Source: a virus. From it: a stretch of DNA of 64,000 bases. The notes under the pieces were generated by a model that was given only the letters and a program-made list of their open reading frames with translations, ran no database searches and was not told the DNA's origin. Shown here piece by piece: positions 1 to 39,464 of the stretch (its first letter is position 1; every line of letters starts with the position of its first letter). The stretch lies in IMG/VR virus record IMGVR_UViG_3300020213_000031; one strand, written 5' to 3'. The translations under genes were made by a program, and so were the position numbers.

Positions 1-193
1 GGAGCTTTTGTGGTGATATAGTACCTTCCTCATTTATAAATGGATTCACTTATATTACCACACATTCTTAGCATCCCAATGCTTCTTTCTCTCTCTTGCT
101 TATCTCCAAGGGATCGCATGGTGCCAGTGATTGCAGCATGTCTTTCGATTGCATGTGTTGTGTGTTGGCAGATGTGTGCAGCCTTGGGTGGAT

Positions 194-362
194 GTTCCAT
201 GTGTTCACTCACGATTGAATGCTGTGAGGGGTTGGCCTTCAGCGATGTTGAGCAGTCGAGGCATTGCCTGTGTTCCATGTGTTCACTCACGATTGAATGC
301 TGTGAGGGGTTGGCCTTCAGCGATGTTGAGCAGTCGAGGCATTGGCTGTGTTCCATGTGTTG
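194..362. repeat. 78-bp tandem direct repeat, about 2.2 copies (copy1 194-271, copy2 272-349, partial copy3 350-362)
   Basis: Unit gttccatgtgttcactcacgattgaatgctgtgaggggttggccttcagcgatgttgagcagtcgaggcattgcctgt recurs with 1 mismatch; seen directly. Confidence 0.85.
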
Positions 363-746
363 GTTGGCATTCTAATGCTGCGGGGAGTTAGCCTTCTGCG
401 ATGTTGTGCGCACAGATCCTTGTGTCATCTGAGTGGGATGTTGCGGGGTGTTGCGTAACGGAGCCAAGATAGATGGATGTGTTGGGAGGGTGTGGGGGCG
501 GTTGGGGGAGGTTAGAAGGAGAGGGGGTGAGTACACTCATCGAGAGCTGGTCGGCGAGGAACCTTACGGCAGATACCTTCGAGAATTGGGGAGAATGAAC
601 CCCAACGGGTGACATACTTCAGAGTCTCGGGCCAGTGCTCTGAATCGTCTTCTGTGATGTGTTTTCCATCCAGGTCGGAATGAAAGCCAGTTTTAAGTCG
701 TTTGGTTTTGATCGGAGTGAATAGATCCATTGCAGGAATTCTCTCA

Positions 747-22881: not shown

Positions 22882-23709
22882 ATGGGTGACGCTAACGGAA
22901 ACAAATATGAGAAAATAGACTTACCGAAGGAACCGGCTAAAGCCCCTGTTCCCACAGCACCAGTTAAACCTGGTGAGAAGCCGGAAGATCCGAGCGTGAG
23001 AGTTCTCGGCATCGACGTAGCGAAATACCAGGACAAGCTAGATCCCACAGAGTGGGCGAAGCTTTACGCGAAGGGCTACCGCTTTGTGTTCGCCAAGGCC
23101 ACGGATGGGAAGGCTGGATTGGATTCGTATTACAGCTACCATCGCAAGAACGCGAAAGCAGCGGGGTTCCTGGTCGGGGCCTATCATTTCCTGCGTTACG
23201 GATACACGGCTGAGGAGCAAGCATCTCACCATTTCAAAACAGCCGGAAGGGTATCAGGAGAACTCCCGAGCGTCCTTGACGTTGAGTGGGATCGTTACAC
23301 CCTCGACCAAAAGTACGGCAGCGACAAGCGCATGGACAAATGGGCCGAGAATCACGCCAAGAAGTACGTTGAAACCTTGATGCTACTCAACGGCGGAAAG
23401 AAACCAATCATATATACCAATGCGTACTTTTGGCCGGAGAAGTGTTCCTTCCCGGAATTCTGGAGCCAATTTCTCGTGTGGGTTCCCTCTTACTCCGACT
23501 CCCTCAACCCAGGAGGCAAGCACGTACTGGCTGACCTATCCCCTGCGGAAATCGCAAAAGCTGGCGCTGGTGTGAAAATTCCTAGTGGATGGAAGCAATG
23601 GAACTTTTGGCAAGACGACGACGATTTGGCGATTGGCGATGTGAAGGCGATTGACACCAACGTGTTTCGCGGATCGCTCGAAGACCTGCGAAAGATGGCA
23701 AATGCCTAA
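22882..23709 (+). CDS. GH25-family lysozyme (muramidase), endolysin candidate
   Basis: GIDVAKYQ...FAKATDGKAGLDSYY...GAYHF pattern. Confidence 0.7.
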   Translation: MGDANGNKYEKIDLPKEPAKAPVPTAPVKPGEKPEDPSVRVLGIDVAKYQDKLDPTEWAKLYAKGYRFVFAKATDGKAGLDSYYSYHRKNAKAAGFLVGAYHFLRYGYTAEEQASHHFKTAGRVSGELPSVLDVEWDRYTLDQKYGSDKRMDKWAENHAKKYVETLMLLNGGKKPIIYTNAYFWPEKCSFPEFWSQFLVWVPSYSDSLNPGGKHVLADLSPAEIAKAGAGVKIPSGWKQWNFWQDDDDLAIGDVKAIDTNVFRGSLEDLRKMANA

Positions 23710-26166: not shown

Positions 26167-27924
26167 ATGACGCAAAGACGCACCATTTCCGACGAACGCG
26201 ATGAAAAACGCTCCCTGGCGCATCTCCAGGCCACCCTGGACAGCGAAGAAGGCGAACTTGACGACCTGGATTACACCGAGGAAGAGGCTGAAGAGGCTCT
26301 AAAACCTGACCCCGTGGCGGTCAAAGCTGAACGCGGCATGGAAGAATTGTCTGTAGAGCAAATTATTGCCCGAGCAGAGTCCTCGGAAGAGTGGGATATC
26401 TTCGAAGACATCGGCGCCCACCTCGTTTCACGCGGCGATCAGGTCAAGTATTCGGTAAAACTGAACGGAGAACATCGGGCAACCATCCCTCATCCCTGTT
26501 CCTACGATTGGCTTCAGAAAAAATACGGTGGCGGCTCATACCACGTCACCCTTCGTTCCTACCTTTTTTCGAAAAAAGCAGGCGGCGGATACCTCAAATC
26601 GCAGTCCAAAATGGTCGCCAACCCAGCCGACGATGAAGCCGACGCCGACGCTCCACTTCCTACAACCCTCGCGGGCGTCATGCCAGCGCCAGAAAAGGCG
26701 GCCTCCCCCGTGGAAATGCTCTCCATCCTGCAATCGATGAACGAAAAAGCGCGTTCCGAGCAACGAGCTGAGATGGAACGCATTCGCGAGGAGAACCGGC
26801 TTCGAGAGGAGAGGCTTGAACGTGAAGCAAAGTCCAGAGAAGAACGTCTCGAGCGGGAAGCCAAGGAACGCGAATCGAAACGCGAGTCTGAAGGCTCTTC
26901 CACGATGATGATGCTCATGAAATTCATGGAGCAATCCAGCGTAGCCGCACGCGAAGCAGCCAATCGCCAGAATGAAATGCTGATCGCGCTCCTCACAAAG
27001 TCGCCGCCTCCAGAGCGAGAAGACAAAAAAACCGACAAACTCTTCGACATGCTTCTCGGTGTGATGCTCGACAAGAAAGCAAAAGGCGATTCTCTCGATC
27101 CGTTGGAACTTCAGAAGTTGCTCAGCGCCGCAGAGGATAAGGGGTATTCCCGAGCGAAAGAAATTCGTGAGCTTGCGCAAGAAGAAGCCGCACGCCTCTC
27201 CGCTCGTATGGGTGGTAAGGATGACGACGAGGATGACGAAGACGAAGAGCCAAAAGAGAAGTCGACGACCAAAATGCTTCTCGAAACCATCGCTCCGATG
27301 ATTTCGCAGTTTGCTCAAGGTGCGGCTCAGGCGCAAGCGCAGCCGCAGCCGGTTCGCAGAGCCTTGCCGCCTCAAATGCGTCGCCCGCTCCCCGCTCCCG
27401 GCCCGAATCCCAATATGCCAGCCAGACCCCCCGCCGCGCCCGCCGCTCCAGCCAGACTGCAAGCGGCGCCCGCTGGTGAGCATCCTGTAAAGGCTGCAAC
27501 TAATCCAGTGCAGCCCCAAAGACAAAGCCTCAACCAAGTAATGAACCAATCAAAACCGCAAGCGGTGAAAGCGACTATGAAGCCGACGAAGAAAGAAATT
27601 GTCTCCGAGACTGTAGTAAACAAGATCACGGCAGACCTGACTGCCAATTTCCTGACCGGAGGATACGATCCGGAGAAAACAGCGGACGCCGCGCTTGCGA
27701 GCTTGGCCGACTACAAGTTTGACGATGGAGCGAAAATTGACGCTGCTTGGCTTCTGACCAACTTCACGCTGGATGAAATGAAAGCTGTAGCCAAGGCCAA
27801 AGGAATGCCGGAAGCCATCAATGCCTACCTGGAGCGCTTCTACGAGCGCGTAAAGTACATTGAAGGCGCTCAAAAGATCCTTGAGGGTGGATCGCAGCCT
27901 GCCAGCACGCCAGATTCCGTCTAG
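26167..27924 (+). CDS. acidic, coiled-coil, Pro/Ala-rich virion-module protein (scaffold/internal-protein candidate)
   Basis: First gene of late module; REERLEREAK repeats, D/E-rich and PA-rich low-complexity segments. Confidence 0.45.
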   Translation: MTQRRTISDERDEKRSLAHLQATLDSEEGELDDLDYTEEEAEEALKPDPVAVKAERGMEELSVEQIIARAESSEEWDIFEDIGAHLVSRGDQVKYSVKLNGEHRATIPHPCSYDWLQKKYGGGSYHVTLRSYLFSKKAGGGYLKSQSKMVANPADDEADADAPLPTTLAGVMPAPEKAASPVEMLSILQSMNEKARSEQRAEMERIREENRLREERLEREAKSREERLEREAKERESKRESEGSSTMMMLMKFMEQSSVAAREAANRQNEMLIALLTKSPPPEREDKKTDKLFDMLLGVMLDKKAKGDSLDPLELQKLLSAAEDKGYSRAKEIRELAQEEAARLSARMGGKDDDEDDEDEEPKEKSTTKMLLETIAPMISQFAQGAAQAQAQPQPVRRALPPQMRRPLPAPGPNPNMPARPPAAPAAPARLQAAPAGEHPVKAATNPVQPQRQSLNQVMNQSKPQAVKATMKPTKKEIVSETVVNKITADLTANFLTGGYDPEKTADAALASLADYKFDDGAKIDAAWLLTNFTLDEMKAVAKAKGMPEAINAYLERFYERVKYIEGAQKILEGGSQPASTPDSV

Positions 27925-27976
27925 GCATAAGAAAAAGATCGTGTGAAAATAGGTGGAGGAGTGAATCATTGCCCTA

Positions 27977-28624
27977 TTGATTTGCTCCTTTACTCGCCCC
28001 GAGTTCATCCGGCTTTTCGCCGAGACCGGCAGGGGCGGCTCGGAGTATCCGTTGCCTATTTTACAATTGAAGCCGCAATGGGAGCTGGGTGCGCTCCCTT
28101 CAACTCAATCGACAGAGCTTTCCTCTTCCGATAGAGGCAATTACGAGACTGTCGAAATCATGCGCCGTAAAGCGCGAGAGAACTCTTCGCACCCGCTTGT
28201 GCGCGGCCTTGCGCTGAAAGTCCTGGAGCAATCCGGAGTCAAATCCCACAATTTTGTTGACGAAGCGAAAGCTTTGGCCGAGTTCATCCAAAAAGAAGTG
28301 CGCTACGTTCGTGACACTAACGACGTTGAACAGCTCCATGATCCTGTTTACATGATCCGTAGAATTATTGAGGGCACCGCTCAAGGCGACTGCGACGACA
28401 TGGCTCTCATCCTTGTCACGCTTCTCTTGTCTGTAGGCCACCAGCCGTATTTCGCCATCGTTCGCTACCGCGAGGTGGCCGGACCATTCAACCATATTTA
28501 TGTAGTTGAATACGATCGCAACTGGGGTGGCGCAAAGAAGCGTATCGTTATGGATACCATCCTGAAAGATCGCCCCATCGGAACAGAGGTTCCACACAAA
28601 TCTAAGATGGAGATCAAGGTATGA
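27977..28624 (+). CDS. transglutaminase-like cysteine protease fold protein (maturation protease candidate)
   Basis: GDCDDMAL...GH...D pattern (Cys-His-Asp); true start may be downstream. Confidence 0.4.
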   Translation: MICSFTRPEFIRLFAETGRGGSEYPLPILQLKPQWELGALPSTQSTELSSSDRGNYETVEIMRRKARENSSHPLVRGLALKVLEQSGVKSHNFVDEAKALAEFIQKEVRYVRDTNDVEQLHDPVYMIRRIIEGTAQGDCDDMALILVTLLLSVGHQPYFAIVRYREVAGPFNHIYVVEYDRNWGGAKKRIVMDTILKDRPIGTEVPHKSKMEIKV

Positions 28625-28884
28625 GTGAAATTGAATTGCGATTCAATCCACAGCTTGGCACTTGGTACAATCCGCTTACTTGGTACGGGAAAGAAAGCTC
28701 ACCAGCGCCTCAAGTTCAAACAAAGCCCGCCGTTGACGACTTTTTTGCTCCAGGCGAAGAAAAGAAAATGGAGCAGCTTATACGCGAAAAACTTATCGCG
28801 GAATGGCGCCACAATTTAATGCTTGCCGCCGCAGGCGCGGGGTTTGCGCTTGTGCTTATACTTTTGTTTAGGAAGAAAAAATGA
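28621..28884 (+). CDS. small C-terminal-TM membrane protein
   Basis: ATGA overlap; C-terminal hydrophobic helix. Confidence 0.4.
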   Translation: MSEIELRFNPQLGTWYNPLTWYGKESSPAPQVQTKPAVDDFFAPGEEKKMEQLIREKLIAEWRHNLMLAAAGAGFALVLILLFRKKK

Positions 28885-29585
28885 ATCCTTTATTCTTGAT
28901 CGGCGGAGTAGCTGCCGCCTCTTATATGTTGAACGAATCTTCTCCTTCTACAGCGAAAGCCGACAATCGCGACCAAGGCTTGACCAATCAAGACAGCTCC
29001 GATCCTCTTCCTTGGGATTCAATCATCAAGGGGACTATCGCGGTCGTTGCCGCTGGCGCCGTGCTGAAATCTTTTGGTGGAAGGCAGTTGCCCGATACTT
29101 TTGATCGCGCCGGAAGGTCTGAGGGAGCGTTAGCGTTTAGGGAACTCTCAGCAAAGGTTCCGTCGATGAGCAGGATTACAGAACTCGAACAAGTTTATGA
29201 AGCCAATCAACAAAAATACGCTCCATCGATCACGAGTGTTTTTGAAGAAGTTGCGGCGGCAAGAGATGCAGCATCTCAGGCACGATGGGTCGCTGAACAA
29301 GAATCTGATCGTCTCTGGCGCCAGCGTCTTGAATTGGCTGAAATTGAGAAGCAGCGCGAATATAAACGCCAAGCAGATATCCGGGAAGCGCAATACCAAA
29401 TGCGAGAAGCCGTGAAGCAGGCGAAGCCTATGTCCTATAAAGAATATCAAGTCTCTTCGTTCGACAGCAAAAAACCAACAACGACCGCAAGCGCAAGCGG
29501 GATAACGGGTAAGACGAGCAGCCAAAAGCTCGATTCTTCGGGGCCAACTCAAAAAATTCAGCGCATTGTACTCAAGAGGGGATGA
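28881..29585 (+). CDS. N-terminal-TM coiled-coil membrane protein
   Basis: ATGA overlap; N-terminal TM. Confidence 0.4.
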   Translation: MNPLFLIGGVAAASYMLNESSPSTAKADNRDQGLTNQDSSDPLPWDSIIKGTIAVVAAGAVLKSFGGRQLPDTFDRAGRSEGALAFRELSAKVPSMSRITELEQVYEANQQKYAPSITSVFEEVAAARDAASQARWVAEQESDRLWRQRLELAEIEKQREYKRQADIREAQYQMREAVKQAKPMSYKEYQVSSFDSKKPTTTASASGITGKTSSQKLDSSGPTQKIQRIVLKRG

Positions 29586-29800
29586 TGAAAAACTTCGGCA
29601 CCATTTCTCAAGAGCAAGTAATCTCAACCGGAGCTGAGGCCGTTCAGGCGATTCAGTCGGCGTCTGATGAATCGTCCGCGTTTGTACAACAAGCGGCGGT
29701 CCACCCCGACCAGATAGCGGAGAACGCCAAGAAAATGAGTGTTCTCGGCTGGGTCGTTACGCTGTACACTCTCAACTGGTTTAGAAAGATGATTTTTTAG
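29582..29800 (+). CDS. small C-terminal-TM membrane protein
   Basis: ATGA overlap; TM helix. Confidence 0.4.
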   Translation: MMKNFGTISQEQVISTGAEAVQAIQSASDESSAFVQQAAVHPDQIAENAKKMSVLGWVVTLYTLNWFRKMIF

Positions 29801-29809
29801 GAGCAAGCG

Positions 29810-30244
29810 ATGCAATATGTAGTGCAAAACGGAGACACGCTCTCCGCCATTTCTCAAAAGTTTTACGGTTCGCCCAGCTATTACAGGGCGATCGTTGCCG
29901 CCAATCCAATTATTCAGAACGAGAATCTGATCCAAATTGGCTGGATGCTCGAAATTCCTGGCTCCGAATTGCTCGGTCCAATTCGCCCCGGCGACCCGAC
30001 GATGCGTCCGCCTGGAGTATCTTCAGGCTTCACGCCTTCACCATCGCCTTCTCCACAACCGCTTCCTTCGCCGTATGGCCCCGGAACCGTATTGCAGCCA
30101 ACACCAGCGCAAGAGTCGAAAACTAAACTTTATTTGCTCATTGCTGCCGCCCTTGTTGGTGGTTTCTTCATTGTGCAGTATCTTTCAAAACAACAGGCAG
30201 CTCCTAAAGAGAAGCCAACCGAACCGCAGGCGGAGGCCGTATGA
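29810..30244 (+). CDS. LysM-domain protein with Pro-rich linker and C-terminal TM anchor
   Basis: YVVQNGDTLSAISQKFYG...IVAANP LysM signature; TM LYLLIAAALVGGFFIV. Confidence 0.65.
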   Translation: MQYVVQNGDTLSAISQKFYGSPSYYRAIVAANPIIQNENLIQIGWMLEIPGSELLGPIRPGDPTMRPPGVSSGFTPSPSPSPQPLPSPYGPGTVLQPTPAQESKTKLYLLIAAALVGGFFIVQYLSKQQAAPKEKPTEPQAEAV

Positions 30245-30858
30245 TCAGGCAGATGGGCGATTTTGGAGCGGACGACGAAGTTTACATGATCCACGTGGTC
30301 GTGGCTGGCGACTCTTTGTCGAAGATTTCAAAAGAATGGTACGGCGATTATTCACACGTCCAAGAGATTGCCGACCTGAATGGGATCGCCAATATAAATA
30401 ATATCAAAGTAGGACAAGTCTTGAAGCTCAAGAATCCGCAGATTCCTGAAGACATGCCGATCAAGCCTGGGCCTCCCCATCAGAGTCCAATCCTTGTGCC
30501 ATTGCCACAGCCAGCCCCACCAACTTACGACCTTCCTTACACGAGGCCAATTACGTTGCCTGCGCCGCCCAAGGAAATTCCGTACACGCAGCCGATCACG
30601 CTCCCCGCGTTGCCGCCACCCACGTCGGGCGTCCCCACGCCACCAGCCGCGTATGTGCCACCTAAGAATATTTCCATCATGGATTTTTTCCGCCAGGTGC
30701 CAACCCTCGCCGTGAAAAAATTCTTTGGTTTGACTGTGCTTCAATGGGCTGCGGTTACTGGTTTGGTTGGTTTGAGTATTGGGATGCTGACTTTAGGCAG
30801 CTCGAGAAAAACCGCGACGAATCCTAGACGGAAAAGAAACGCAATCCGGAGGAGATAA
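30241..30858 (+). CDS. LysM-domain protein with Pro-rich linker, TM anchor and basic NPRRKRN tail
   Basis: HVVVAGDSLSKISKEWYG...LKLKNP LysM signature; TM; C-terminal ATNPRRKRNAIRRR. Confidence 0.65.
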   Translation: MIRQMGDFGADDEVYMIHVVVAGDSLSKISKEWYGDYSHVQEIADLNGIANINNIKVGQVLKLKNPQIPEDMPIKPGPPHQSPILVPLPQPAPPTYDLPYTRPITLPAPPKEIPYTQPITLPALPPPTSGVPTPPAAYVPPKNISIMDFFRQVPTLAVKKFFGLTVLQWAAVTGLVGLSIGMLTLGSSRKTATNPRRKRNAIRRR

Positions 30859-31919
30859 TGCACTTTCTCAGCAATGTCGCTTTTGGCGATGTCGAAAATT
30901 CGGACATGACCTCGACGATCAAGGACGTGAGCGATCGTATTGCTGCGTCTTCCAATTATCAGACTTGCGCTCCCGGACAACTCGTTTCTGAATACGCCTC
31001 AACCGATTTATCAAAAACCAAGCCAACGCTTGATTTTACTCTTCCAGAAGTAAAAGCGTATGAAGCGTGCGGGGACGAGCGAACGAGAAAGCTCGCCTCC
31101 CTTGTGATGAATCTCTCCGACGAGGACGCTGCCGCAAACTTGGCGAAGGTTGATGATATCGATGGGCTGATTCGCGACATCAATGATTTCAAAACCTACC
31201 TTCAGGTAAAAATTCAAACCACGAAGGGTCTGACAACGCCGCAGTTTGATTCTTGGTATTATGAGCAATACTGGGGAAACTGGACGCTCTATCGCAGAGC
31301 CTCTGGCTTGTTCGGCGCAGAAAGCGTCAAACGTGCAAACAAAAAACAAGCCTTAGCGCAACTCGTAAAATCTCAAGCGAGCTTTCAGCTTTCAACGCAA
31401 ATTCAAGATTTCTATCTGGACTTGTCGAAAAAATACGGTCCCAGATTTTCCTTGGGCGAGCAAAAGAAGCTAAAAGATTTCTTCGTCGATACGACTGTGT
31501 ACGAGTGGAAGATTGAAGACTTTCTGTCGGTGGGTCAGCTTTTGGAGCGAGAACTCACACACGAGGACGTAGCGAAATATTATATGTACGTTCCGATGGC
31601 GGTGACGGGTTACTACTTCGAAGGAAAGGATAAATCTCCGACCGATTATGTGGCAAGAGTGAAAGAGTTCTCGGACGCTGCAAAAAGAGCGCTAACTTCT
31701 TTCATTGGCCCGCTTAATGGTGCTACAGCAATTTCGATGGACACCGCTTCCAAGATCGCGCAAAAGTGTAACAACGATGCCACCTGCATCGCGAATCACT
31801 TCCGCGACGTGGCCGCTGGCGCTGTGGAGCCAGTTGGTGATAAAGTAGGCGTAAGCGCTGGCACCGTTGTCTTTGTAGCCGCCACAACCTTTGTTTTATG
31901 GAAATTTCTTAAAAAGTAG
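30858..31919 (+). CDS. C-terminally membrane-anchored virion-module protein
   Basis: TAATG overlap; C-terminal TM VVFVAATTFVLWKFL. Confidence 0.45.
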   Translation: MHFLSNVAFGDVENSDMTSTIKDVSDRIAASSNYQTCAPGQLVSEYASTDLSKTKPTLDFTLPEVKAYEACGDERTRKLASLVMNLSDEDAAANLAKVDDIDGLIRDINDFKTYLQVKIQTTKGLTTPQFDSWYYEQYWGNWTLYRRASGLFGAESVKRANKKQALAQLVKSQASFQLSTQIQDFYLDLSKKYGPRFSLGEQKKLKDFFVDTTVYEWKIEDFLSVGQLLERELTHEDVAKYYMYVPMAVTGYYFEGKDKSPTDYVARVKEFSDAAKRALTSFIGPLNGATAISMDTASKIAQKCNNDATCIANHFRDVAAGAVEPVGDKVGVSAGTVVFVAATTFVLWKFLKK

Positions 31920-31930
31920 GAGAGAAGATT

Positions 31931-32626
31931 ATGGCAGACGAAAAAACCGCAGCCGCCGCGAAAAGCATTGGTACGACCGCCGCAGGCGCCGTGGGCACTA
32001 TATATGGAGGCCCAGCAGGTGGAGCCATTAGCTCGCAGGGCGCAGCCTCTCTTTGCGATTGCTGCTGTGGTGGGGCATCGAAATCTGCCGACCAGAAGAA
32101 AGCAATCGATCAGCAGCACCCCCTCACGGGTGATGCCGCCGTTGATGCTCAGATTCAAAAGCAGCGCGACGCCGAGTTCAAGAAATGGCAAACGCAGCAA
32201 GACGTTCAGCAATTTGAACAACTCCCCCCTGACACTCAGGCTCTTCTTCCAGGCATCAAGCAGTTCGCCGACAACCTTTACGCCCAGATTCCTGAAGCCG
32301 ACCACAACTTGACGCTCGCCGAGACCGTAGCGAAGTATCCTGAATTGTCGGAATCGGCATACGCGCAGATTCAAAAGGCCGTTCCGTCGCTCAAAAACAT
32401 GCCTCTGAGTTACGCCATGGCGCTCGCGAAGGCTTCCGGTGCCGATCAGATCAAGCTTTCGGAAATCAAAGCTCGTCTCGACAACGTGGCTCAGAATGCT
32501 CCTTCGGCTCAGAAGATCATGCAGGGGCAAAGTTCGAATATTGGGACTCTCGCCGTGGGTGGCGCAGCCCTTGTTGCGGGTCTTATCGGCATCGTGGTTC
32601 TCGTCAAAAAGATGGGTAAGCGATAA
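31931..32626 (+). CDS. C-terminally membrane-anchored protein with Gly/Ala-rich N-terminus and CDCCCGG motif
   Basis: C-terminal TM LVAGLIGIVVLV. Confidence 0.45.
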   Translation: MADEKTAAAAKSIGTTAAGAVGTIYGGPAGGAISSQGAASLCDCCCGGASKSADQKKAIDQQHPLTGDAAVDAQIQKQRDAEFKKWQTQQDVQQFEQLPPDTQALLPGIKQFADNLYAQIPEADHNLTLAETVAKYPELSESAYAQIQKAVPSLKNMPLSYAMALAKASGADQIKLSEIKARLDNVAQNAPSAQKIMQGQSSNIGTLAVGGAALVAGLIGIVVLVKKMGKR

Positions 32627-32729
32627 TTTTGCTTTGGCTGGCCTCGATAGGCTAGGCACAAGAAACAAAAGTCACTAAAATAAAGAAGCAGGCGCGGGAT
32701 GCGCTGCAAAGCCTTATAAGGAGATCGAA

Positions 32730-33248
32730 ATGCACAACCAATATCCCCAGATGGGATGCTCTGACGGCGCGATGGGTTACTATCACAAGGGACTTGGCAC
32801 CGTAATTTACGATGAACCAGGACAAATGAATGGCGGTCAGATGGGTGATGCACTCTCTAATCTCTTCGACGTTGTGAAAAACCAGATCCCCGGCCTCACG
32901 CAGAACGTTTTCGGGAATTGGCTTGCGACCACCAAAGAAGGCCAAACCTTCCAAAACCAGGCTGAAGCCCTTGGCGCTCAAGCCGCAGCCTCACAAATGG
33001 CCGCGCAAGACGCAACCTTTCGCCAGAATTTGCAAAGTTTTTACAATTCTCAGCTTTCGAGCCTGAAGCAAAACTACAAAACTTATTTGATGTACGCAGC
33101 CGTTGCCGCTGTGGTAGTTGGCGCCGTGATTTATTTCGGCCCAGCTATCAAACGCTCGCTTATGGGAAGCACCAGAGCTGTAGCAACGAATCCTCGCCGG
33201 AAAAGAAATTCTAGCCGTCGTCGTTCCAGGAAGTCGCGTCGTCGGTAA
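32730..33248 (+). CDS. membrane-anchored protein with basic NPRRKRN tail (paralogous tail to 30241-30858)
   Basis: TM + C-terminal ATNPRRKRNSSRRRSRKSRRR. Confidence 0.45.
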   Translation: MHNQYPQMGCSDGAMGYYHKGLGTVIYDEPGQMNGGQMGDALSNLFDVVKNQIPGLTQNVFGNWLATTKEGQTFQNQAEALGAQAAASQMAAQDATFRQNLQSFYNSQLSSLKQNYKTYLMYAAVAAVVVGAVIYFGPAIKRSLMGSTRAVATNPRRKRNSSRRRSRKSRRR

Positions 33249-33261
33249 AAAGGAGTTCTAA

Positions 33262-34281
33262 ATGAATCTTATTAATCTCGTTCTGCTTGGCCTTGGAGCC
33301 AAAGTTCTGCTTTCCAAGAGCGCACCCGTTCAAGCGAAAGCAATCGCTCCTTCTGGCAGCACCCTCGACCCCGCAACGAGCGGTGAGCTGTCTGTCGCTC
33401 CGTCGCCCTATGCGCCGAATGCCGCTCTTCCGAGTTCCAAAGACCCCTACAAGCGTCCTCCCACGGCTGTTCATGCTGGTGAAAATTGGGGCGACGACAA
33501 ACGCGCCCGCGAACGTGCCCTTCACAAGGCGCCGCTTTCTGCTGACTACGTTCCCGATTACAACGAGATGTATGAGGAAAAATACGGCGCCGACGCTCTC
33601 GCTGCTGAATCCGCTCCCCTTACTGTTGGCGGGAAGTCCGTGCAGCTCGAACGTCTGAACGAAGTCGCCAAACGTGCCTCATCTCGCGAGCGTGCCGCTC
33701 AGATTCGTGAACAGCGGATCGCCATGGATTACGACGAGAATGATGTATCGGTGGCAGAAGACGGCGGCATTGAATTGCACAAATATCGCCAATCTCGCGC
33801 CCTCGTGGCAGATGTAAATAAAGACGCGGCCATGGATGCTCGCTCCAGGGCAATCGAGATGGCTGAAGATGCTCAAGTGATTCGTGAGAACAGGAATCGG
33901 TCTGCGGCTCATGGTCGCGATATCGAACGTTCCATTCGCAGAGACATCGACCCCAACCTCGATATGGCTTTTCAACAAGGTTATCGCGGTCAGATGGGTG
34001 GAACTTTCACGAAAAATCCTGAAATGGGGTTTGCTGACGCTCAGCCTGTTTCTTTCCGCGAGGGGAATTTTGATCAGTCGGAAGTAGTCGCTTCTACTCC
34101 CTTCAACAATGCTCTTCGCTATGAAGACCTTTATGCGAAAGGTCAGGCCGATTGGCCTCTCGTTTCTCAGCAGAAGGATATGAATTCTGACTTTGCTGGA
34201 GTTCTCGTAAACGAGGCCGGTTCGGCAGATTTCTCGCACGACATTGTGTACGATGTGAAAGAAGATTTCGGGAGACGCTAA
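33262..34281 (+). CDS. N-terminal-TM virion-module protein
   Basis: N-terminal TM; charged helical body. Confidence 0.45.
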   Translation: MNLINLVLLGLGAKVLLSKSAPVQAKAIAPSGSTLDPATSGELSVAPSPYAPNAALPSSKDPYKRPPTAVHAGENWGDDKRARERALHKAPLSADYVPDYNEMYEEKYGADALAAESAPLTVGGKSVQLERLNEVAKRASSRERAAQIREQRIAMDYDENDVSVAEDGGIELHKYRQSRALVADVNKDAAMDARSRAIEMAEDAQVIRENRNRSAAHGRDIERSIRRDIDPNLDMAFQQGYRGQMGGTFTKNPEMGFADAQPVSFREGNFDQSEVVASTPFNNALRYEDLYAKGQADWPLVSQQKDMNSDFAGVLVNEAGSADFSHDIVYDVKEDFGRR

Positions 34282-34844
34282 TGGCTTACGCTATCGACAA
34301 ATCGGGCGGCAGTGGTGAGTTGACGACCTCCGAGCAGGCTTGGGCTAAGATCGACGAACTTCACAGGAATTTCGACGAGCTGATGACTAAGCGTCTCGAG
34401 GTTTACAAGACAATCTCAGCCATGCCGCTTGGCGCTGAGCGTGATTCCGCTGTTACGGAATTCAATGATATCGAGAATTCTTTCCTTAGTTACGTTTGGC
34501 CTGGAGTAAAGAAAATTTTCGATACACTTGGGTACGAAAGTCCGAACACGCAGCTTCCTGGAACCCTTGGTTTCCTTCCCGCCATTTGGGCAGCTTTCGT
34601 CGGAGCGAGCTGGGCGACACAGCTCATCGTTGCCGCATCTGCCGTGGCACTTATCGGCTACACGATTGAAATTACCGCTCGTTACTCAGCAATGCTCATT
34701 CGCCCAAGCCTCGCTCCGTATGTGAACAAGGGAAGCGTTTCAGACATCGTGAAAAGCTCGATGAAATATCTGGTTATTGGCGGTCTAGCTATCGCCGCGA
34801 TTTACGTTCTGGCACCGACGCTGCTCAAGGGAGCAAAAAGGTAA
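34281..34844 (+). CDS. polytopic membrane protein
   Basis: TAATG overlap; 2-3 hydrophobic helices. Confidence 0.45.
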   Translation: MAYAIDKSGGSGELTTSEQAWAKIDELHRNFDELMTKRLEVYKTISAMPLGAERDSAVTEFNDIENSFLSYVWPGVKKIFDTLGYESPNTQLPGTLGFLPAIWAAFVGASWATQLIVAASAVALIGYTIEITARYSAMLIRPSLAPYVNKGSVSDIVKSSMKYLVIGGLAIAAIYVLAPTLLKGAKR

Positions 34845-35566
34845 TGGCCGAATACGCTGCATGGGTTGATCGCATTTACGCTCAAGCGAAAGACGCCCGC
34901 GTAAAAGAGCTTGAGAAAATCATCTCAGCTTTTTCCGCTCGCTCAAAAACTGCGTACAACCTCGCGGAAGCCCTTTCAGACTTGAAAGAATTCGAAAAGC
35001 CTTCTTTCCTTACTCACCTTCATGAAGTGCCGCTCAAGGGCGGAAAGCCTGGAACCTTGGAGCATTGGAAGTTCGCTGGACCCGTATTGGCTGTGAAGCA
35101 CAAAAAATTGCCACTGATCCTGGCCGTCGCTAAAGACAACAAAGCCTTCACGGGAAAAAAGAATGAGAGCTTGGATTCTATCGAGAAGGACTTCGATATT
35201 CGCCAGGTGCTTTCATGGACGAATGTTGTTTCAAGAATGACCTCTAAACAGAAGAGCAAGCTCGCCTCCCTTCTGATCGACGGTATCGGCACCCAAAAGA
35301 AGACGAAAAAGCCCGAAGAGGTTTGGCTGTCTGACTTTATTGAGGGTGAAAAAGAGTTTCGTGTGATTGGGTTTGCAGCCAATGCACCCTATATCAACGT
35401 CGATCGCGCTTTCGGTGATACGAAGCCGATTTGGGTTCACCCATGGGGTATTCCCTCCCTGCTATTGAAGCACAAAACACTTCCCGTTATAATGATGGTA
35501 AGTCCGGCGATAAGGCTAAACGAAAACCTTCTAGGTTCTAGGAACATGGAGGGTTACACAGGCTAG
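34844..35566 (+). CDS. hypothetical virion-module protein
   Basis: TAATG overlap; no motif. Confidence 0.4.
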   Translation: MAEYAAWVDRIYAQAKDARVKELEKIISAFSARSKTAYNLAEALSDLKEFEKPSFLTHLHEVPLKGGKPGTLEHWKFAGPVLAVKHKKLPLILAVAKDNKAFTGKKNESLDSIEKDFDIRQVLSWTNVVSRMTSKQKSKLASLLIDGIGTQKKTKKPEEVWLSDFIEGEKEFRVIGFAANAPYINVDRAFGDTKPIWVHPWGIPSLLLKHKTLPVIMMVSPAIRLNENLLGSRNMEGYTG

Positions 35567-35690
35567 GCCCAAATAGGCTGCCGGAGGGGTAAAAATGAAG
35601 TTGCAGTACGTTTTCGGAGCAAATCCAGCTCCTAGCAAAAAAAAGATAGGCACAAGAAAAAATTCTCGTAAAATTGGAAAAGGAGGTCAC

Positions 35691-37082
35691 ATGGCTAAAA
35701 AGAAAGCCTCGCCCGCTCAGCGTGCGTGGAGAAAAGAATTCGGACGCTTGGCTCGGGCAGGAAAGCTTGGCAAGGCAAACCCCAAGGGCAAAAAGCGCAA
35801 GAACCCTAAAGTCGTGGTTCGCGTAAAAAAAGAAATGCCTGAAGAGAGTCATACCCTCTCGTGGCCCAACAAGGCTGAAGTAGAAGCTGCACGCGAAGAG
35901 CGTGACGCTGCTCGCGCTCAATTGGCTGCCATGCAGTCTGAGTACGATAGTCTTTACTCCTCTCCCTTCTCCCGCGATTTCGTGCTCAGCAAGAGCAAGA
36001 AAAACTATAGCGGATCAACCAATAAACTTGTGGCTGTAGAAAAGAAACTTGCCGCTCTCGAGCGCAAAGTTACAACGGCCAAAGAAAAATATGAAGAGCT
36101 TGTTACCAAGCGGAAAGGGACTATCGTGAGCAAGAAGAATTCCGGCAAAAAGCGCCGTAAACATAAGAGAAACCCAGGAAATCCTGATTACGGAATTATC
36201 GTTGCCGGTAATCCCAAGAAGAAAAAAGCCAAGAAGAAAAAAGCCAAAAAGAAAAAGGCTAAAAAGGCTAAAAAGCGCTCTTACAAGCGTAAATCCAAGC
36301 GTCGTAAGGCCCTCAAGGCTCTTCCGATGGTGATGAGCCACTCTTTCCCTCTCAGCAAAAAGCGTAAAGCTGGAATCTCTCGCAGACGCCGTTTGCGTGC
36401 AAAAGTTTCCATCGGCAACCCAGGCTCCGCAAAAGACATGCTCATGAAGTATGGCGTTGTGGCTCTGGCTGGTGCTGCGTACCCTTGGTACAACTACGCG
36501 ATCAAGCGCTTCATCGTGAAGGGTCTTGACGATCTGACGAAAGGTGCCGTAAGCCGCTTCCTCGGCCCCATCGACGCAAAAGTTCCGGGCGTAACTGCTC
36601 CCGGTATCGCTCTTGCTGTTGTGCTCGGTCTGAAGATCGCTGACGACAAATGGTCGTTCATGAAGAAGCTTGGCGCTCAAGCTGACATGGCCGAACAGGT
36701 ATTGGACACCATGGGCATCCTCGCCGCAGCCGAACTTGGCCGCGTAGGAGCTGCTTACGCCAAGATCGACCCCGTTGGGGCTGGTATGAGCGGCGTGGAC
36801 TTCTATCCTTCCAGCATGGCTGGTGCAGACTTTGGTTATCTGACCGATGGCTACCGTCAACGCGCTGGCGATTTCGGAAATGTGAAGTTCTTCCCTGCCG
36901 GTATGGCTGGAGTGGAATTTTATCCTCCCGGATCGCAAGGCGACCAAATGTATGTTCCTTCGATGAGGGATCAACTGCGCGAAGCCGAAGGCTTGGGCGA
37001 GACTCCCGAAATGGGCGGAATCCCCGAAGGCTTGGGCGAAATCCCTGAAGGCATGGGCGAAGACCCAGGCCAAATGGGCTAA
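35691..37082 (+). CDS. lysine-rich highly basic protein (DNA-binding/internal core protein candidate)
   Basis: AAGGAGGT RBS before ATG 35691; KKKKAKKKKAKKKKAKKAKKRSYKRKSKRRK tract. Confidence 0.5.
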   Translation: MAKKKASPAQRAWRKEFGRLARAGKLGKANPKGKKRKNPKVVVRVKKEMPEESHTLSWPNKAEVEAAREERDAARAQLAAMQSEYDSLYSSPFSRDFVLSKSKKNYSGSTNKLVAVEKKLAALERKVTTAKEKYEELVTKRKGTIVSKKNSGKKRRKHKRNPGNPDYGIIVAGNPKKKKAKKKKAKKKKAKKAKKRSYKRKSKRRKALKALPMVMSHSFPLSKKRKAGISRRRRLRAKVSIGNPGSAKDMLMKYGVVALAGAAYPWYNYAIKRFIVKGLDDLTKGAVSRFLGPIDAKVPGVTAPGIALAVVLGLKIADDKWSFMKKLGAQADMAEQVLDTMGILAAAELGRVGAAYAKIDPVGAGMSGVDFYPSSMAGADFGYLTDGYRQRAGDFGNVKFFPAGMAGVEFYPPGSQGDQMYVPSMRDQLREAEGLGETPEMGGIPEGLGEIPEGMGEDPGQMG

Positions 37083-37089
37083 CCCCCTC

Positions 37090-37250: not shown

Positions 37251-37916
37251 ATGCCTATCGTAAGACTTCCCGGAGGCGACCTTCGTGACGAAATTCGCCA
37301 ACCTCTCTATGACACCCTCTCCGTAGCTGGTAGCGGTGTTACCTCGTTCACTGGCCTGCTCACTGGTTCGACCCCGAACGCATTCGACGGTCAACAGTTT
37401 TTCTCGAACATTCAAGGAAAGCAACGTTGGCAGACCAATATGCTGCAAGCAAACCTTCTCCAGACCGCTGTATCCTTCCGGATGCAAGGTATGGCGATCG
37501 ACGCCCAGTATGCTCAAGGTGTGCCCGCCGCTGACGCTCTCGTAGCGCTTCACGGCAGCTTCCTTCCCGCTGTTCAAGATTTCGCATCCCTGCGTCTTCG
37601 CATCGGTGAGAAAGACTACTGGGAAGGCCCGCTTTCCTATCAAATGGGTCGCATCGTTGGTAACGCCGGTCAACAAGCTTACCAGCACGCTGGTCAGCCT
37701 GCCGTTCAAGGCATCATCCTCGCCGGTCGCCATGTAGTGGACATCAATCCTCTGCAAGCTTTCTTCGCTCAACTGAGCGTTGACGTGCCTGCAAGCATCG
37801 ATGCTTCGAACGCTGCCGACCTCAACAAGAACAACGTTGGCAACGTAATCGCTGGCCTCGACATTGTTAACCTGAAGATGAGCCTCAAGGGTCTTCTTCG
37901 TCGCCCGGTTCAGTAA
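37251..37916 (+). CDS. abundant small beta-rich virion protein (major capsid/virion protein candidate)
   Basis: AAGGAAACAAGCAATATG RBS; followed by 190-nt hairpin-dense terminator region (37920-38060). Confidence 0.45.
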   Translation: MPIVRLPGGDLRDEIRQPLYDTLSVAGSGVTSFTGLLTGSTPNAFDGQQFFSNIQGKQRWQTNMLQANLLQTAVSFRMQGMAIDAQYAQGVPAADALVALHGSFLPAVQDFASLRLRIGEKDYWEGPLSYQMGRIVGNAGQQAYQHAGQPAVQGIILAGRHVVDINPLQAFFAQLSVDVPASIDASNAADLNKNNVGNVIAGLDIVNLKMSLKGLLRRPVQ

Positions 37917-38109: not shown

Positions 38110-38781
38110 GTGGGGATTCTCCCCAAGCTCAGCAGCCGCCACGGCGGCCTGATCGCCTCGGGGAGAACATCTGGAATGGAAGACAATGATTTTCTCGAAG
38201 TCCGTAAACAAATCCGCAGAAAAGAACGCCTCGCCCGTAAGGAGCATCGTATGAGCAAACGGCTCGAAGAGAACATTTTGTCCTCTATCCCCTCAGGTCT
38301 TATTCCTGGAAACGTTGGCCCCTACGATTCTGTAGCATGGCCCTTTTCCTATACCGTGACTTTTGATTTTGGAGCCTCTCCCGTTACCTACGGCCCAAAT
38401 ACAAAACAAACGCAAAGCTTTCAAGTAACCCAAGAAGCTGCATTCATCTGTGGCTCGCTCTCGAGAAAATGTCTCGATGGTGGTCCCATGGGTGAACTTT
38501 CCCCACTTCAGTTGATTGTGCGAGATCGCCAATCCACTCGCCAATTCATGGATTTCCCCATTCCTCTTCAAGCCATTGCGAAAAAAACGCCGCAAACGAT
38601 TTGGGAAGTTCCACTCATCCTTATGCCGAGTGCGTTCCTCGACGTAGAGATGACGAGCTGGGCGCCTGTAGACCAAGTTACTGGCGGTCAGAGCAGCAAA
38701 ATTAGCATCACGTTTGCTGGATACCGCACGCGGACCAAAGACATTGGCACTGTGCTCAGCACCATCTTTGGTCGGAAGTAG
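38110..38781 (+). CDS. small beta-rich virion protein, paralog of 38790-39464
   Basis: Shared motifs WPF.Y/F...Q.QS/T.SF.VTQEAxF with next ORF; start may be internal Met. Confidence 0.45.
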   Translation: MGILPKLSSRHGGLIASGRTSGMEDNDFLEVRKQIRRKERLARKEHRMSKRLEENILSSIPSGLIPGNVGPYDSVAWPFSYTVTFDFGASPVTYGPNTKQTQSFQVTQEAAFICGSLSRKCLDGGPMGELSPLQLIVRDRQSTRQFMDFPIPLQAIAKKTPQTIWEVPLILMPSAFLDVEMTSWAPVDQVTGGQSSKISITFAGYRTRTKDIGTVLSTIFGRK

Positions 38782-38789: not shown

Positions 38790-39464
38790 ATGGACTACCG
38801 CAAAATTCGCGACAACAACCGGAACCAGCAGATGAACTCGCAGCTCAACCGTCGCCTTGCCCCTCAGTCGGGCGCTGAAGGCAATGCTGGACGTGAGTTG
38901 CAAGACAAATTCTCGCACGGAATTCTTTCTGGAATTCAGCCCGGAAACATTGGCGACATCAACAGGGTCATTTGGCCCTTCGCCTTCCAATTTCAGACCG
39001 CCAATGGTGTCGTGCAAGATATTGAGCCTGGGCAATCGCAAACTCTATCCTTCTCTGTAACGCAGGAAGCTGGATTCTTGATGCGAACCATTTCGCACAG
39101 CACGTTTCGTAGACTCGGCGCCGTCGCGCCCTACTTCTACGAGTATGTGGACCCTTACTATTTCGATGAATCGTCAAATTCGCCAAACGGTCTTAGCTTT
39201 TCTCTGCAAGATGCAGTTTCGACGAGGCAATACACCGGCTCCCTGAACGGTCGCACGAACGAAGAAATTTCGATGCTTGGAAATGCGAACTACCCATTCG
39301 TTTACCCATCGACCGTGTTCTTGCTTCCTAATCAAACGATGCTGCTTAACCTGACGAACAACAGCCCAATTTCGGAAACGTACCGCACCTTCGTAACCGT
39401 TTGGGGTTACAGAATCCGCGTTGAGGATGCTCAACAAATCTTGTCGACTGTGAGGATGGGGTGA
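38790..39464 (+). CDS. small beta-rich virion protein, paralog of 38110-38781
   Basis: Shared motifs as above. Confidence 0.45.
   Translation: MDYRKIRDNNRNQQMNSQLNRRLAPQSGAEGNAGRELQDKFSHGILSGIQPGNIGDINRVIWPFAFQFQTANGVVQDIEPGQSQTLSFSVTQEAGFLMRTISHSTFRRLGAVAPYFYEYVDPYYFDESSNSPNGLSFSLQDAVSTRQYTGSLNGRTNEEISMLGNANYPFVYPSTVFLLPNQTMLLNLTNNSPISETYRTFVTVWGYRIRVEDAQQILSTVRMG

Follow-up and report, generated by a model that had tools for sequence, protein, structure and literature searches.

Reviews describe the Salisaeta phage SSIP-1 as membrane containing, with a PRD1-type architecture and MCPs of two kinds (PMC6356626, PMC4958249). Sphaerolipoviruses have linear genomes with inverted terminal repeats (ITRs) and terminal proteins (PMC12643093), and in actinobacterial tectiviruses, the structural segment encodes a LysM protein (PMC6950372). 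Here, we analyzed a stretch of 64 kb (the window) that is nearly the whole of a linear double-stranded DNA genome of ca. 68 kb (Table 1). We favor, with moderate confidence, a tailless bacterial virus with protein-primed replication, in whose virion module a run of membrane proteins would belong to an internal vesicle.

Table 1. Features of the window (KD, Kyte-Doolittle hydropathy; TM, transmembrane segment)
Feature	Position	Strand	Evidence or remark
Left ITR	1..728	.	Right end of sister contig L010
Candidate terminal protein, 269 aa	1359..2168	+	Position alone
pPolB (protein-primed DNA polymerase)	2263..4644	+	Pfam PF03175, E 5e-29
GH25 endolysin	22882..23709	+	Pfam PF01183, E 2.9e-29; lysis function outside the run
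Motif copies 1/2/3	27922..27934; 32653-32665; 35647-35659	+	Promoter-like
Transglutaminase-like (papain-fold) protein	27977..28624	+	Homolog of SSIP-1 virion protein gp34
Tail-anchored membrane protein, 87 aa	28621..28884	+	C-terminal TM 65-83, KD 2.30, tail RKKK
Protein, 234 aa	28881..29585	+	Borderline KD 1.55, internal/N-proximal, residues 48-66
Protein, 72 aa	29582..29800	+	Weak C-terminal hydrophobic segment, KD 1.01
LysM, Pro-rich linker, and TM (107-125)	29810..30244	+	Pfam LysM, E 1.7e-8; KD 2.13
LysM, ~80-aa Pro-rich repeat linker, TM, and basic tail (…TATNPRRKRNAIRRR)	30241..30858	+	Pfam LysM, E 1.2e-9; KD 1.63
Protein, 353 aa, C-terminal TM anchor 330-348, tail KFLKK	30858..31919	+	KD 1.86
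Protein, 231 aa, C-terminal TM anchor 207-225, tail KKMGKR	31931..32626	+	KD 2.67
Protein, 172 aa, TM 122-140, 32-aa highly basic tail with NPRRKRN	32730..33248	+	KD 2.03
Protein, 339 aa, N-terminal hydrophobic anchor or signal-like segment	33262..34281	+	Borderline KD 1.55, residues 3-21
Protein, 187 aa, two hydrophobic segments (107-125, 164-182)	34281..34844	+	KD 2.30 plus second segment
Soluble protein, 240 aa, conserved lineage core gene, fold unknown	34844..35566	+	Homologs in 11 relatives
Lys/Arg-rich protein, hydrophobic segments in C-terminal half	35595..37082	+	Sequence, hydropathy
Jelly-roll capsid protein candidate	37251..37916	+	Structure model; most conserved structural gene
Jelly-roll capsid paralog A	38110..38781	+	Gene callers: start 38251
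Jelly-roll capsid paralog B	38790..39464	+	Structure model
Fourth conserved beta protein, ~200 aa	39461..40096	+	Conserved synteny
Fiber/spike-like protein	40099..41337	+	PHROG matches, E 1e-24
Large structural/spike-like protein, 1,087 aa	41351..44614	+	phrog_5596, E 7e-40

Genome ends and replication genes

Both an ITR and a pPolB are present, from which we infer protein-primed replication. Read as the reverse complement, the last 124 nt of the right end of L010 match window positions 605 to 728 exactly, while positions 1 to 604 of the ITR were inferred by arithmetic (3,389 nt past the window plus 604 gives 3,993, that is, 67,993 − 64,000). The repeat contains three tandem copies of a 78-nt unit (193 to 426), and two contigs (L014 and L015) break off near position 699 of the window. 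The nearest cultured relatives of the pPolB are those of the Bam35-group tectiviruses and Methanosarcina spherical virus (25 to 28% identity); closer homologs (40 to 72%) share contigs with the capsid genes, a co-occurrence that extends across the lineage. The gene directly upstream gave no match in the family search, and relative L156 has a 260-aa gene in the same place; that it encodes the terminal protein is a possibility inferred only from position.

The GH25 endolysin and an M15 peptidase (at 15457) are located elsewhere than the membrane-protein run and, together with LysM, are peptidoglycan-directed domains that point to a bacterial host. Among the accessory genes, several fall into Pfam families whose names come from tailed mycobacteriophage L5 or from phage gene products (Phage_L5_gp82, GP88).

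A run of membrane-anchored proteins

Ten consecutive + strand ORFs (28621 to 34844) carry terminal hydrophobic anchors, strong in seven, borderline in two, and weak in one. TM segments were called by hydropathy only (Kyte-Doolittle, 19-residue window; strong, at least 1.6), which does not establish topology. The threshold was reached by 7 of the 10 (28621, 29810, 30241, 30858, 31931, 32730, and 34281), compared with 18% of the ORFs of at least 60 aa outside the run (binomial P = 4e-4); the product of 29582 is the least certain member. The initial annotation had assigned a terminal TM helix to every one of these ORFs, which mostly held (one borderline segment, in 28881, is internal or N-proximal), as did its ORFs and coordinates, its two proteins joining LysM, a proline-rich linker, and a TM segment, and its lysine-rich protein, in which we additionally found the hydrophobic segments. 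The span that it had given to the run (28621 to 35566), however, takes in the product of 34844, a soluble rather than a membrane protein.

The run proteins evolve fast. None of the ten has a homolog among characterized virion proteins, the neighboring transglutaminase-like gene alone having one, and 28881 gave no match in Pfam or other family searches. Homologs were found in relative L017 for 29810 (same architecture) and 31931 and in relative L018 for 30858 (weak), 31931, 33262, and 34281. At the same place in relatives, a strong hydrophobic segment was present in 34 of 60 upstream proteins (C-terminal in 24) versus 25 of 111 downstream genes. Since LysM occurred in 1 of these 60 proteins, it is not a core feature of the run.

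The structural block and its capsid candidates

The run and the capsid genes form one co-oriented, translationally coupled block with overlapping stop and start codons (ATGA at the start of 28621). The motif CTAGGCAyAAGAAA-N9-10-AAAAT occurs three times on the + strand, always in a gap between genes of the block; it may act as a promoter, a function that is inferred. At the upstream edge, the transglutaminase-like family HMM matched SSIP-1 gp34 with an E value of 4.5e-18 (BLASTP, 31% identity over 121 aa, with the DCD...H motifs aligned). This gene, conserved in two relatives (L007 and L031), matched Pfam Transglut_core, but below the cutoff.

The 240-aa protein that follows the run had no match in Pfam, PHROG, or PDB; its homologs in relatives always lie immediately upstream of the basic membrane protein. 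The Lys/Arg-rich protein, with a conserved NP[KR][KR] motif, probably starts at ATG 35691 (RBS/promoter evidence and gene callers), and TM segments are found in it and in the ca. 500-aa positional counterparts of all relatives. It could be a membrane-anchored DNA-condensing protein, although this function is only inferred.

Four conserved beta proteins of ca. 220 aa come next, and the small beta-rich proteins that the initial annotation had taken as capsid candidates proved real and conserved. The proposed jelly-roll comparison was positive for 37251 and 38790: both model as jelly rolls, and in PDB, they best matched vertical single-jelly-roll capsid proteins from viruses with an internal membrane. 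The products of 38110 and 38790 are paralogs (BLASTP, 4e-13; hhalign, 99.9%), and in some relatives, the two paralogous jelly-roll genes are fused into one double-jelly-roll-like protein. For 39461, without a fold model, profile comparison with the 38790 family gave only a marginal match (E 0.01 to 0.03); its product may be a vertex protein or else a strongly diverged jelly-roll paralog. The jelly rolls are the most conserved structural genes of the lineage. The best BFVD match of the 37251 model was I1ZBH9, a 211-aa viral protein that we take to be possibly SSIP-1 gp46, on length alone (identity unconfirmed). Further downstream, residues ca. 65 to 196 of 40099 form a module that also occurs in tailed phages, in their tail-fiber and capsid-decoration proteins (131 phage records were matched by tblastn). 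The product of 41351, which has positionally equivalent homologs in L017 and L018, might have a structural or spike role, again inferred.

Absence of tail and packaging genes

No ORF of the complete genome matched HK97 MCP, portal, terminase, or tail families, nor those of tape-measure, sheath, or tube proteins. The initial annotation had seen no HK97 MCP, portal, or large terminase in the window; this held, now for the whole genome, and the homologs that it had named as refuting its reading were not found. The FtsK/HerA-type packaging ATPase that it had proposed looking for was also absent, which sets the element apart from standard members of the tectivirus/sphaerolipovirus assemblage. Not one frame of the complete genome contains a Walker-A motif, and hence there is no Walker-A ATPase of any kind; in a near-complete relative, the sole P-loop protein was a dNMP kinase.

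A conventional tailed phage with HK97 capsid, portal, and terminase too divergent to recognize, its run being a cassette for lysis or exclusion and its jelly rolls serving as decoration or fiber proteins, could be argued from the many ORFs without a family match, the 40099 module, and the accessory genes in Phage_L5_gp82 and GP88 families. We consider it very unlikely: besides the missing matches, a terminase needs the Walker-A motif that the genome lacks, few unassigned ORFs exceed 300 aa (two of them, 30858-31919 and 33262-34281, being anchored members of the run), and it is the jelly rolls that are most conserved among the structural genes.

The lineage has been seen only in metagenomes (59 JGI loci and 278 capsid-protein clusters); its relatives were not found in IMG/VR or phage databases, and in none of 185,579 reference genomes was the element detected. 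It is probably an undescribed lineage without tail genes or the usual DNA-packaging motor. A nonviral linear plasmid or mobile element, with carbohydrate-binding jelly rolls and membrane proteins forming a transfer or secretion apparatus, would agree with the absence from IMG/VR and with jelly rolls being common in cellular lectins; pPolB and ITRs also occur together in linear plasmids. This too is very improbable given the endolysin, fiber-like proteins, SSIP-1 virion-protein homolog, and phage-typical accessory genes, the lack of a conjugation ATPase or relaxase (neither was found) or indeed of any ATPase, and the absence from all the reference genomes.

Proposed virion organization

In the reading that we favor, genes 27977 to 44614 would be the virion module. 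The shell would consist of several vertical single-jelly-roll proteins (37251, the pair 38110/38790, and probably 39461 at the vertices), with 40099 and 41351 as spikes or fibers. By analogy with PRD1, PM2, P23-77, SH1, and SSIP-1, the ten anchored proteins and 35691-37082 would most likely belong to an internal lipid vesicle, enclosed by the shell and surrounding the DNA. The basic tails, short or long (RKKK ... NPRRKRN-RRR), and the Lys-rich protein are inferred to face the DNA and neutralize its charge, the larger N-terminal domains pointing to the shell. During infection, the membrane, bearing the two LysM proteins with their long polyproline spacers, may engage and cross the peptidoglycan for genome delivery. 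Because the genome lacks a P-loop ATPase, DNA would probably not be pumped into a procapsid; instead, the particle would form around a core of condensed DNA and membrane, a route that has been proposed for SPV1. Topology, delivery, and assembly route remain inferences, and lipid in the virion is not demonstrable from sequence. Against the vesicle stand the lack of the packaging ATPase typical of nearly every PRD1-type or sphaerolipovirus-type virus, the lack of characterized virion homologs for the ten proteins, the sporadic occurrence of LysM in relatives, and the positive-inside rule, which would place the basic C-terminal tails in the host cytoplasm, a location not easily reconciled with the PRD1 model of membrane acquisition.

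By the same reasoning, in a tailless jelly-roll virus, the ten proteins could instead be nonvirion proteins of the host inner membrane, involved in forming assembly sites, in egress or lysis control, or in excluding superinfection, with basic tails cytoplasmic and the short LysM/Pro-rich N termini outside, in the periplasm. The unconserved LysM and the fast evolution of the run, without virion-protein homologs, would agree. We regard this as unlikely, given that the run lies between the SSIP-1 virion-protein homolog and the capsid genes, is coupled to them, and has the promoter-like motif in common; that distant relatives have a run of similar character at this position; that endolysin-type genes are located elsewhere; and that TM-bearing gp34, gp41, and gp53 in the equivalent block of the SSIP-1 GenBank record are annotated as structural. 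An enveloped or pleomorphic particle, or an external membrane acquired by budding, with LysM outward, basic tails on the DNA inside, and jelly rolls as matrix or spike components, would obey the positive-inside rule and make a packaging ATPase unnecessary. It is nevertheless very unlikely, as the conserved jelly-roll proteins (37251 and 38790 modeled) best match shell-forming MCPs, their fused tandem versions in relatives look like double-jelly-roll capsomers, and the GH25 and M15 enzymes suggest lytic release.

Comparison with known systems

The SSIP-1 homolog just upstream of the run, the pPolB, the ITR, and the jelly-roll models support the novel membrane-containing phage lineage suggested by the initial annotation, the membrane itself still being inferred. 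The Tectiviridae (PRD1, Bam35) share linear genomes, ITRs, and a pPolB from one and the same Pfam family, where the nearest cultured relatives of the polymerase are found; their virions contain many small membrane proteins as well as proteins active on peptidoglycan. Their genomes, however, measure ca. 15 kb and encode a single double-jelly-roll MCP along with P9 as packaging ATPase, and sequence similarity is confined to the polymerase. The Sphaerolipoviridae, Simuloviridae, and Matsushitaviridae (SH1, HHIV-2, HCIV-1, P23-77) have internal-membrane virions and two related vertical single-jelly-roll MCPs encoded by adjacent genes; these MCPs provided the best structural matches. There is no sequence similarity to them, and their genomes of 16 to 31 kb have an FtsK/HerA packaging ATPase and no recognizable pPolB, whereas here we found three to four jelly-roll proteins in ca. 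68 kb and no ATPase. The Portogloboviridae (Sulfolobus polyhedral virus 1) differ in their archaeal hyperthermophilic host and ca. 20-kb genome, in contrast to the LysM, GH25, and M15 found here, and are not known to have a pPolB.

SSIP-1 differs in its circular genome and its Walker-A protein gp40; the search for pPolB relatives gave no match there, and no sequence similarity was detected between its gp44-48 and the jelly-roll families described here. It resembles our element in its bacterial host (it is cultured), in a genome that is large for the morphotype (43.8 kb), in four or five structural proteins of ca. 130 to 260 aa within a block flanked by runs of TM proteins, and in gp34, a structural protein in GenBank, which is the sequence homolog of 27977-28624.

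Membrane-anchored proteins in the structural block

Between positions 27977 and 44614, every long ORF lies on the plus strand, and the genes are closely packed, with stop and start codons often overlapping. Within this block, the initial annotation had assigned a transmembrane (TM) helix to each ORF from 28621 to 34844 (genes are named by their start coordinates; we refer to these ten as the run) and a combination of LysM domain, proline-rich linker and TM anchor to two of them. We evaluated the anchors by Kyte-Doolittle hydropathy, using a 19-residue window and taking values of ≥1.6 as a strong segment; no trained TM predictor stands behind the calls. By hydropathy only, the observation was confirmed, with strong segments in seven of the ten ORFs, borderline values (1.55) near the N terminus of 28881 and 33262, and a weak value (1.01) in 29582. 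Elsewhere in the window, only 18% of ORFs attained 1.6, giving a binomial P of 4e-4 for seven out of ten. The strong segment of 28621, 29810, 30241, 30858, 31931, and 32730 lies in the C-terminal part and is followed by 4 to 32 mostly basic residues, and 34281 has two hydrophobic segments. The claim for the LysM proteins also held, on Pfam matches plus hydropathy: both have a proline-rich stretch between LysM and the hydrophobic segment, which in the second protein is a repeat (PYT(R/Q)PITLPA) of ca. 80 residues. No Pfam or PHROG family matched the other proteins of the run.

The motif (A/G)NP[KR][KR][KR] recurs in the C-terminal tails of the TM proteins 30241-30858 and 32730-33248 and also in 35595-37082, a Lys/Arg-rich membrane protein. 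Among 35595-like proteins of metagenomic relatives (loci L007, L017, L018, L041, L071, and others), it is found at the extreme N terminus (F-x-F-x-NP+++) or internally. The motif may be a DNA-binding or processing site, and the adjoining transglutaminase/papain-fold protein could be a protease; both binding and cleavage are inferred.

A promoter-like motif (CTAGGCAyAAGAAA-N9-10-AAAAT) occurs in three copies in intergenic gaps of the structural block. Given the third copy and a strong AGGAGG ribosome-binding site, the Lys-rich gene is taken to start at ATG 35691, not at 35595. A sigma-70/terminator scan of the block yielded no excess over the shuffled expectation. Just upstream of the module, a normal-sized, opal-suppressor-like tRNA (labeled SeC by ARAGORN) overlaps the first codons of ORF 25984-27924, and for this reason the ORF probably starts later (e.g., ATG 26167). 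Stop-codon recoding, prompted by this tRNA, was not adopted: ORFs under code 11 are already long and tightly packed. TGA terminates 41 of the 119 ORFs, and the block's first four genes are among these; recoding is not evident.

Coordinates of features in the window (and, where indicated, in the sister contig L010)
Feature	Coordinates (strand)	Evidence or detail
Three tandem 78-nt repeats, within inferred ITR	193-426	100%, 99%, and 67% identity
Candidate terminal protein	upstream of pPolB	269 aa
pPolB	2263-4644	PF03175, E 5e-29
M15 peptidase with C-terminal anchor	15457-16077 (-)	
GH25 endolysin	22882-23709	
tRNA, anticodon UCA	25969-26045 (+)	Rfam tRNA, 60.5 bits
Promoter-like motif	27922-27934, 32653-32665, 35647-35659 (+)	
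LysM protein	29810-30244	Pfam, E 1.7e-8
LysM protein	30241-30858	Pfam, E 1.2e-9
Jelly-roll protein	37251-37916	model pLDDT 86, pTM 0.83
Paralog of 38790	38110-38781	BLASTP 4e-13, hhalign 99.9% (to 38790)
Jelly-roll protein	38790-39464	AlphaFold model, pLDDT 77
Small syntenic protein	39461-40096	marginal similarity to 38790 family (E 0.01-0.03)
IS605-family TnpB	51832-52878 (-)	
tmRNA, full-length match	53927-54370 (-)	RF00023, 67 bits, E 5e-24
Right-arm accessory genes	window 61112-61813; L010 10546-10875, 13028-13408, 13919-14980	GP88, DUF7007, Phage_L5_gp82, DUF932

Jelly-roll proteins of the putative shell

The small proteins downstream had been proposed for testing against jelly-roll major capsid proteins (MCPs), and both 37251 and 38790 were modeled as jelly rolls matching capsid chains of internal-membrane viruses. 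The 38790 model, with basic helices followed by an eight-stranded sandwich, had as its best structural matches an HHIV-2 virion chain, HCIV-1 VP7, and P23-77 VP17, at the fold level only; four of the top five were virion or capsid chains of internal-membrane viruses. Its family has 42 close metagenomic homologs, and 38110 is its adjacent paralog. The most conserved structural gene, 37251 (322 homologs), has no sequence kinship to this pair. [quoted passage not shown] That the jelly rolls stand vertically within the shell is inferred.

Further downstream, 40099 (412 aa) and 41351 (1,087 aa) are likely spike or fiber proteins, the former with a module that many tailed phages have in tail-fiber and decoration proteins. 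Sequence searches gave little: profiles of capsid families A1, A2, and A3 and of the 34844 family (A4) obtained only chance-level matches among all PDB sequences, no PDB homolog was found for 40099, 41351, or 45406, and phage searches with 37251 and 41351 by tblastn returned nothing meaningful. One relative (L061, 6714-8092 and 13692-15333) has four 37251-type jelly-roll paralogs, one of them 321 aa long with an insertion.

The membrane-anchored proteins are found among jelly-roll shell genes, in one co-oriented, translationally coupled block with three copies of the promoter-like motif. That they act in the host membrane and not in the virion is, in our judgment, unlikely. A particle with an external envelope fits less of the evidence, and we consider it very unlikely.

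Absence of a recognizable packaging motor

A search for an FtsK/HerA-type ATPase as opposed to a terminase and portal had also been proposed; neither was found in the genome of ca. 68 kb. Pfam scans covered all ORFs of the window plus those of the rest of the right end, and PHROG scans covered many of them; none matched an HK97 capsid, portal, terminase, tail, or FtsK/HerA family. For HK97, this is a sequence-profile result only, and the folds of unassigned ORFs fall outside it. No reading frame of the window or the remaining right end contained a Walker-A motif ([AG]x4GK[ST]), and a relaxed search for a cryptic ATPase (GK[ST] anywhere, GR[ST]) picked up nothing beyond chance occurrences in unrelated proteins. 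In a relative of 40 kb, of which 37.7 kb were covered, a packaging ATPase was not found either, the sole P-loop protein being a dNMP kinase. The genome could still be that of a highly divergent tailed phage, but it has no P-loop, and to our knowledge no terminase lacks one; we regard this explanation as very unlikely.

Genome ends, replication, and host

A 67,993-bp contig encodes capsid, 37251, and polymerase proteins identical to those of the window. The sister contig L010 extends 3,389 nt past the right end of the window and ends in 124 nt that match the reverse complement of positions 605-728 exactly. Since 3,389 + 604 = 3,993 = 67,993 - 64,000, the window begins at the left terminus, and the inverted terminal repeats (ITRs) are ca. 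728 nt long; the 124 nt at 605-728 are shown, and the rest is inferred. Breaks in other assemblies lie at ca. position 699, as expected at a repeat boundary. [quoted passage not shown] An SPFH protein, a phosphoesterase, an HNH endonuclease, and a TnpB are also encoded. A nonviral linear plasmid would fit less of the evidence and is very unlikely.

The peptidoglycan-directed domains (LysM, GH25, and M15) point to bacteria as the host. The closest relatives of TnpB, at ≤52% identity, are in Pseudomonadota MAGs (Competibacteraceae, Burkholderiales, and Steroidobacteraceae), a weak hint of a possible gamma- or betaproteobacterial host. The tmRNA match, not reported by ARAGORN, is also present in L010. 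The two contigs are 99.7 to 99.9% identical except where window 56160-57138 and L010 3218-5801 diverge; there, L010 has extra minus-strand genes (250 and 266 aa) and a DUF5661 protein of 464 aa, compared with 584 aa in the window. Accessory genes of the right arm fall into families typical of phages, two of these families being named for mycobacteriophage L5 gene products, and indicate gene exchange with tailed phages.

A metagenomic lineage with a jelly-roll fusion

Megablast of positions 28000-45000 against 50,697 phage records gave no match, and capsid-profile scans found no relatives in IMG/VR or in 185,579 reference genomes (GTDB-genome scan). From JGI metagenomes, we recovered 59 loci on contigs of up to 54 kb, and an exhaustive HMMER search yielded 278 clusters at 50% identity. 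The same contigs that carry the capsid genes encode pPolB homologs with 40 to 72% identity, compared with ca. 30% outside the lineage. The family, with genomes of up to ca. 68 to 78 kb, occurs in numerous metagenomes from freshwater, sediment, and soil. No lineage of this kind was described in the literature searched; being absent from IMG/VR and isolate databases, it is missed by current virus detection pipelines.

Gene order was kept in twelve diverse relatives: a fast-evolving run of membrane proteins anchored mostly at the C terminus, a 34844-like gene, a basic protein of ca. 500 aa with one to three hydrophobic segments, four small beta proteins, and large fiber-like proteins. A transglutaminase-like gene precedes the run where the locus extends far enough upstream (e.g., L007 and L031). 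Strong hydrophobic segments were found in 34 of 60 upstream-run proteins versus 25 of 111 downstream genes. Only 1 of the 60 carries LysM, which we therefore consider a clade-specific addition.

In three clusters (P0170, P0187, and P0199) and at locus L064 (9398-10462), a single protein of 333 to 354 aa has two tandem jelly-roll domains, the N-terminal half resembling the 38110 type and the C-terminal half the 38790 type, that is, a fusion in gene order. It resembles a DJR and constitutes a natural fusion of a single-jelly-roll (SJR) pair into a DJR-like protein. This bears directly on the SJR-pair to DJR scenario, which is disputed (PMC8812541), and makes the origin of DJR capsids and of ATP-driven packaging testable inside one lineage.

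Proposed working of the virion

The initial interpretation, a virion module of a membrane-containing phage, was supported, with the internal membrane itself inferred; on balance, we lean toward it. The anchored proteins would populate an internal lipid vesicle, their larger N-terminal domains turned toward the shell. Basic elements, namely, short RKKK-type tails, two long NPRRKRN tails, and the Lys/Arg-rich membrane protein, whose recurrent NP[KR][KR] motifs are conserved across relatives, may neutralize DNA at the inner face, although DNA binding is inferred. By analogy, the two LysM domains on their long polyproline spacers may bind peptidoglycan once the membrane is exposed at entry. PRD1-type viruses have peptidoglycan-active membrane proteins, and actinobacterial tectiviruses encode a LysM protein in their structural segment (PMC6950372).

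For assembly, we infer that DNA would condense with the basic membrane proteins before the shell forms, the most economical route given that there is no ATPase. SPV1 is thought to assemble by DNA condensation followed by shell formation. The topology is unresolved: the positive-inside rule leaves the basic tails cytoplasmic, a misfit with PRD1-style inward budding without further assumptions. The virus is a candidate for studying how a large double-stranded DNA genome could be assembled inside a membrane independently of a motor.

A bolder joint reading is a widespread, unrecognized order-level lineage of bacterial viruses (40 to 78 kb, with pPolB and ITRs), with a motorless jelly-roll shell over a membrane/DNA core and an SJR pair fused into a DJR-like protein in one subclade. 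We put it forward tentatively, as the evidence falls a little short of favoring it. If true, the lineage would represent the portoglobovirus state among bacterial viruses, with SJR capsid genes already duplicated. It would also be an extant case of the SJR-pair to DJR transition, which is contested as the origin of Bamfordvirae, and the largest known prokaryotic genome type of this architectural class.

Comparison with known viruses

The genome encodes one clear homolog of a virion protein of SSIP-1, a phage that according to reviews contains a membrane and has PRD1-type architecture with two types of MCP (PMC6356626, PMC4958249). The 27977-28624 family profile matched gp34, a structural protein according to its GenBank record, with an E value of 4.5e-18 (BLASTP, 31% identity over 121 residues, with Cys and His motifs aligned). 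In SSIP-1, too, the structural block contains four or five small structural proteins, with TM proteins on either side. However, it is circular (43.8 kb) and encodes a Walker-A protein (gp40), and profile and profile-sequence comparisons of its gp44-48 with the jelly-roll families detected no similarity. The idea that 27977 and 28621 (215 and 87 aa) represent a split 304-aa gp34 was rejected, 28621 having no similarity to the gp34 C terminus.

Caudoviricetes differ in their HK97-fold MCP, portal, and large terminase (P-loop ATPase plus nuclease), none of which was found here by sequence profile or motif. Tectiviridae share the linear genome, ITRs, and protein-primed PolB, but they have a single DJR MCP, in contrast to separate jelly-roll proteins of ca. 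220 aa here, fused only in some relatives. Portogloboviridae share SJR shell proteins and the lack of a packaging ATPase, also reported for SPV1 (PMC8812541). Their host is archaeal (Sulfolobales), whereas LysM, GH25, and M15 indicate a peptidoglycan-bearing host here, and SPV1 PDB chains had no sequence match to our proteins.

The Helvetiavirae-type viruses (Sphaerolipoviridae, Simuloviridae, and Matsushitaviridae) likewise have adjacent related SJR genes, as in 38110/38790, a likeness at the fold level only, but their FtsK/HerA packaging ATPase was not found, by motif or family, in the ca. 68-kb genome. For the internal membrane, another trait of this type, support comes solely from the membrane proteins predicted in a run within the structural block. 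The tailless membrane-containing phages known so far are few and small: sphaerolipovirus-type genomes are 16 to 31 kb, that of SSIP-1, a single isolate, is 44 kb, and prokaryotic DJR virus genomes are <20 kb (PMC8812541). In its working, the genome comes closest to the vertical-SJR, internal-membrane viruses, and the lineage joins features that the literature places at separate evolutionary stages: the duplicated SJR genes of Helvetiavirae, the lack of a packaging ATPase of Portogloboviridae, and a tectivirus-type replication module.
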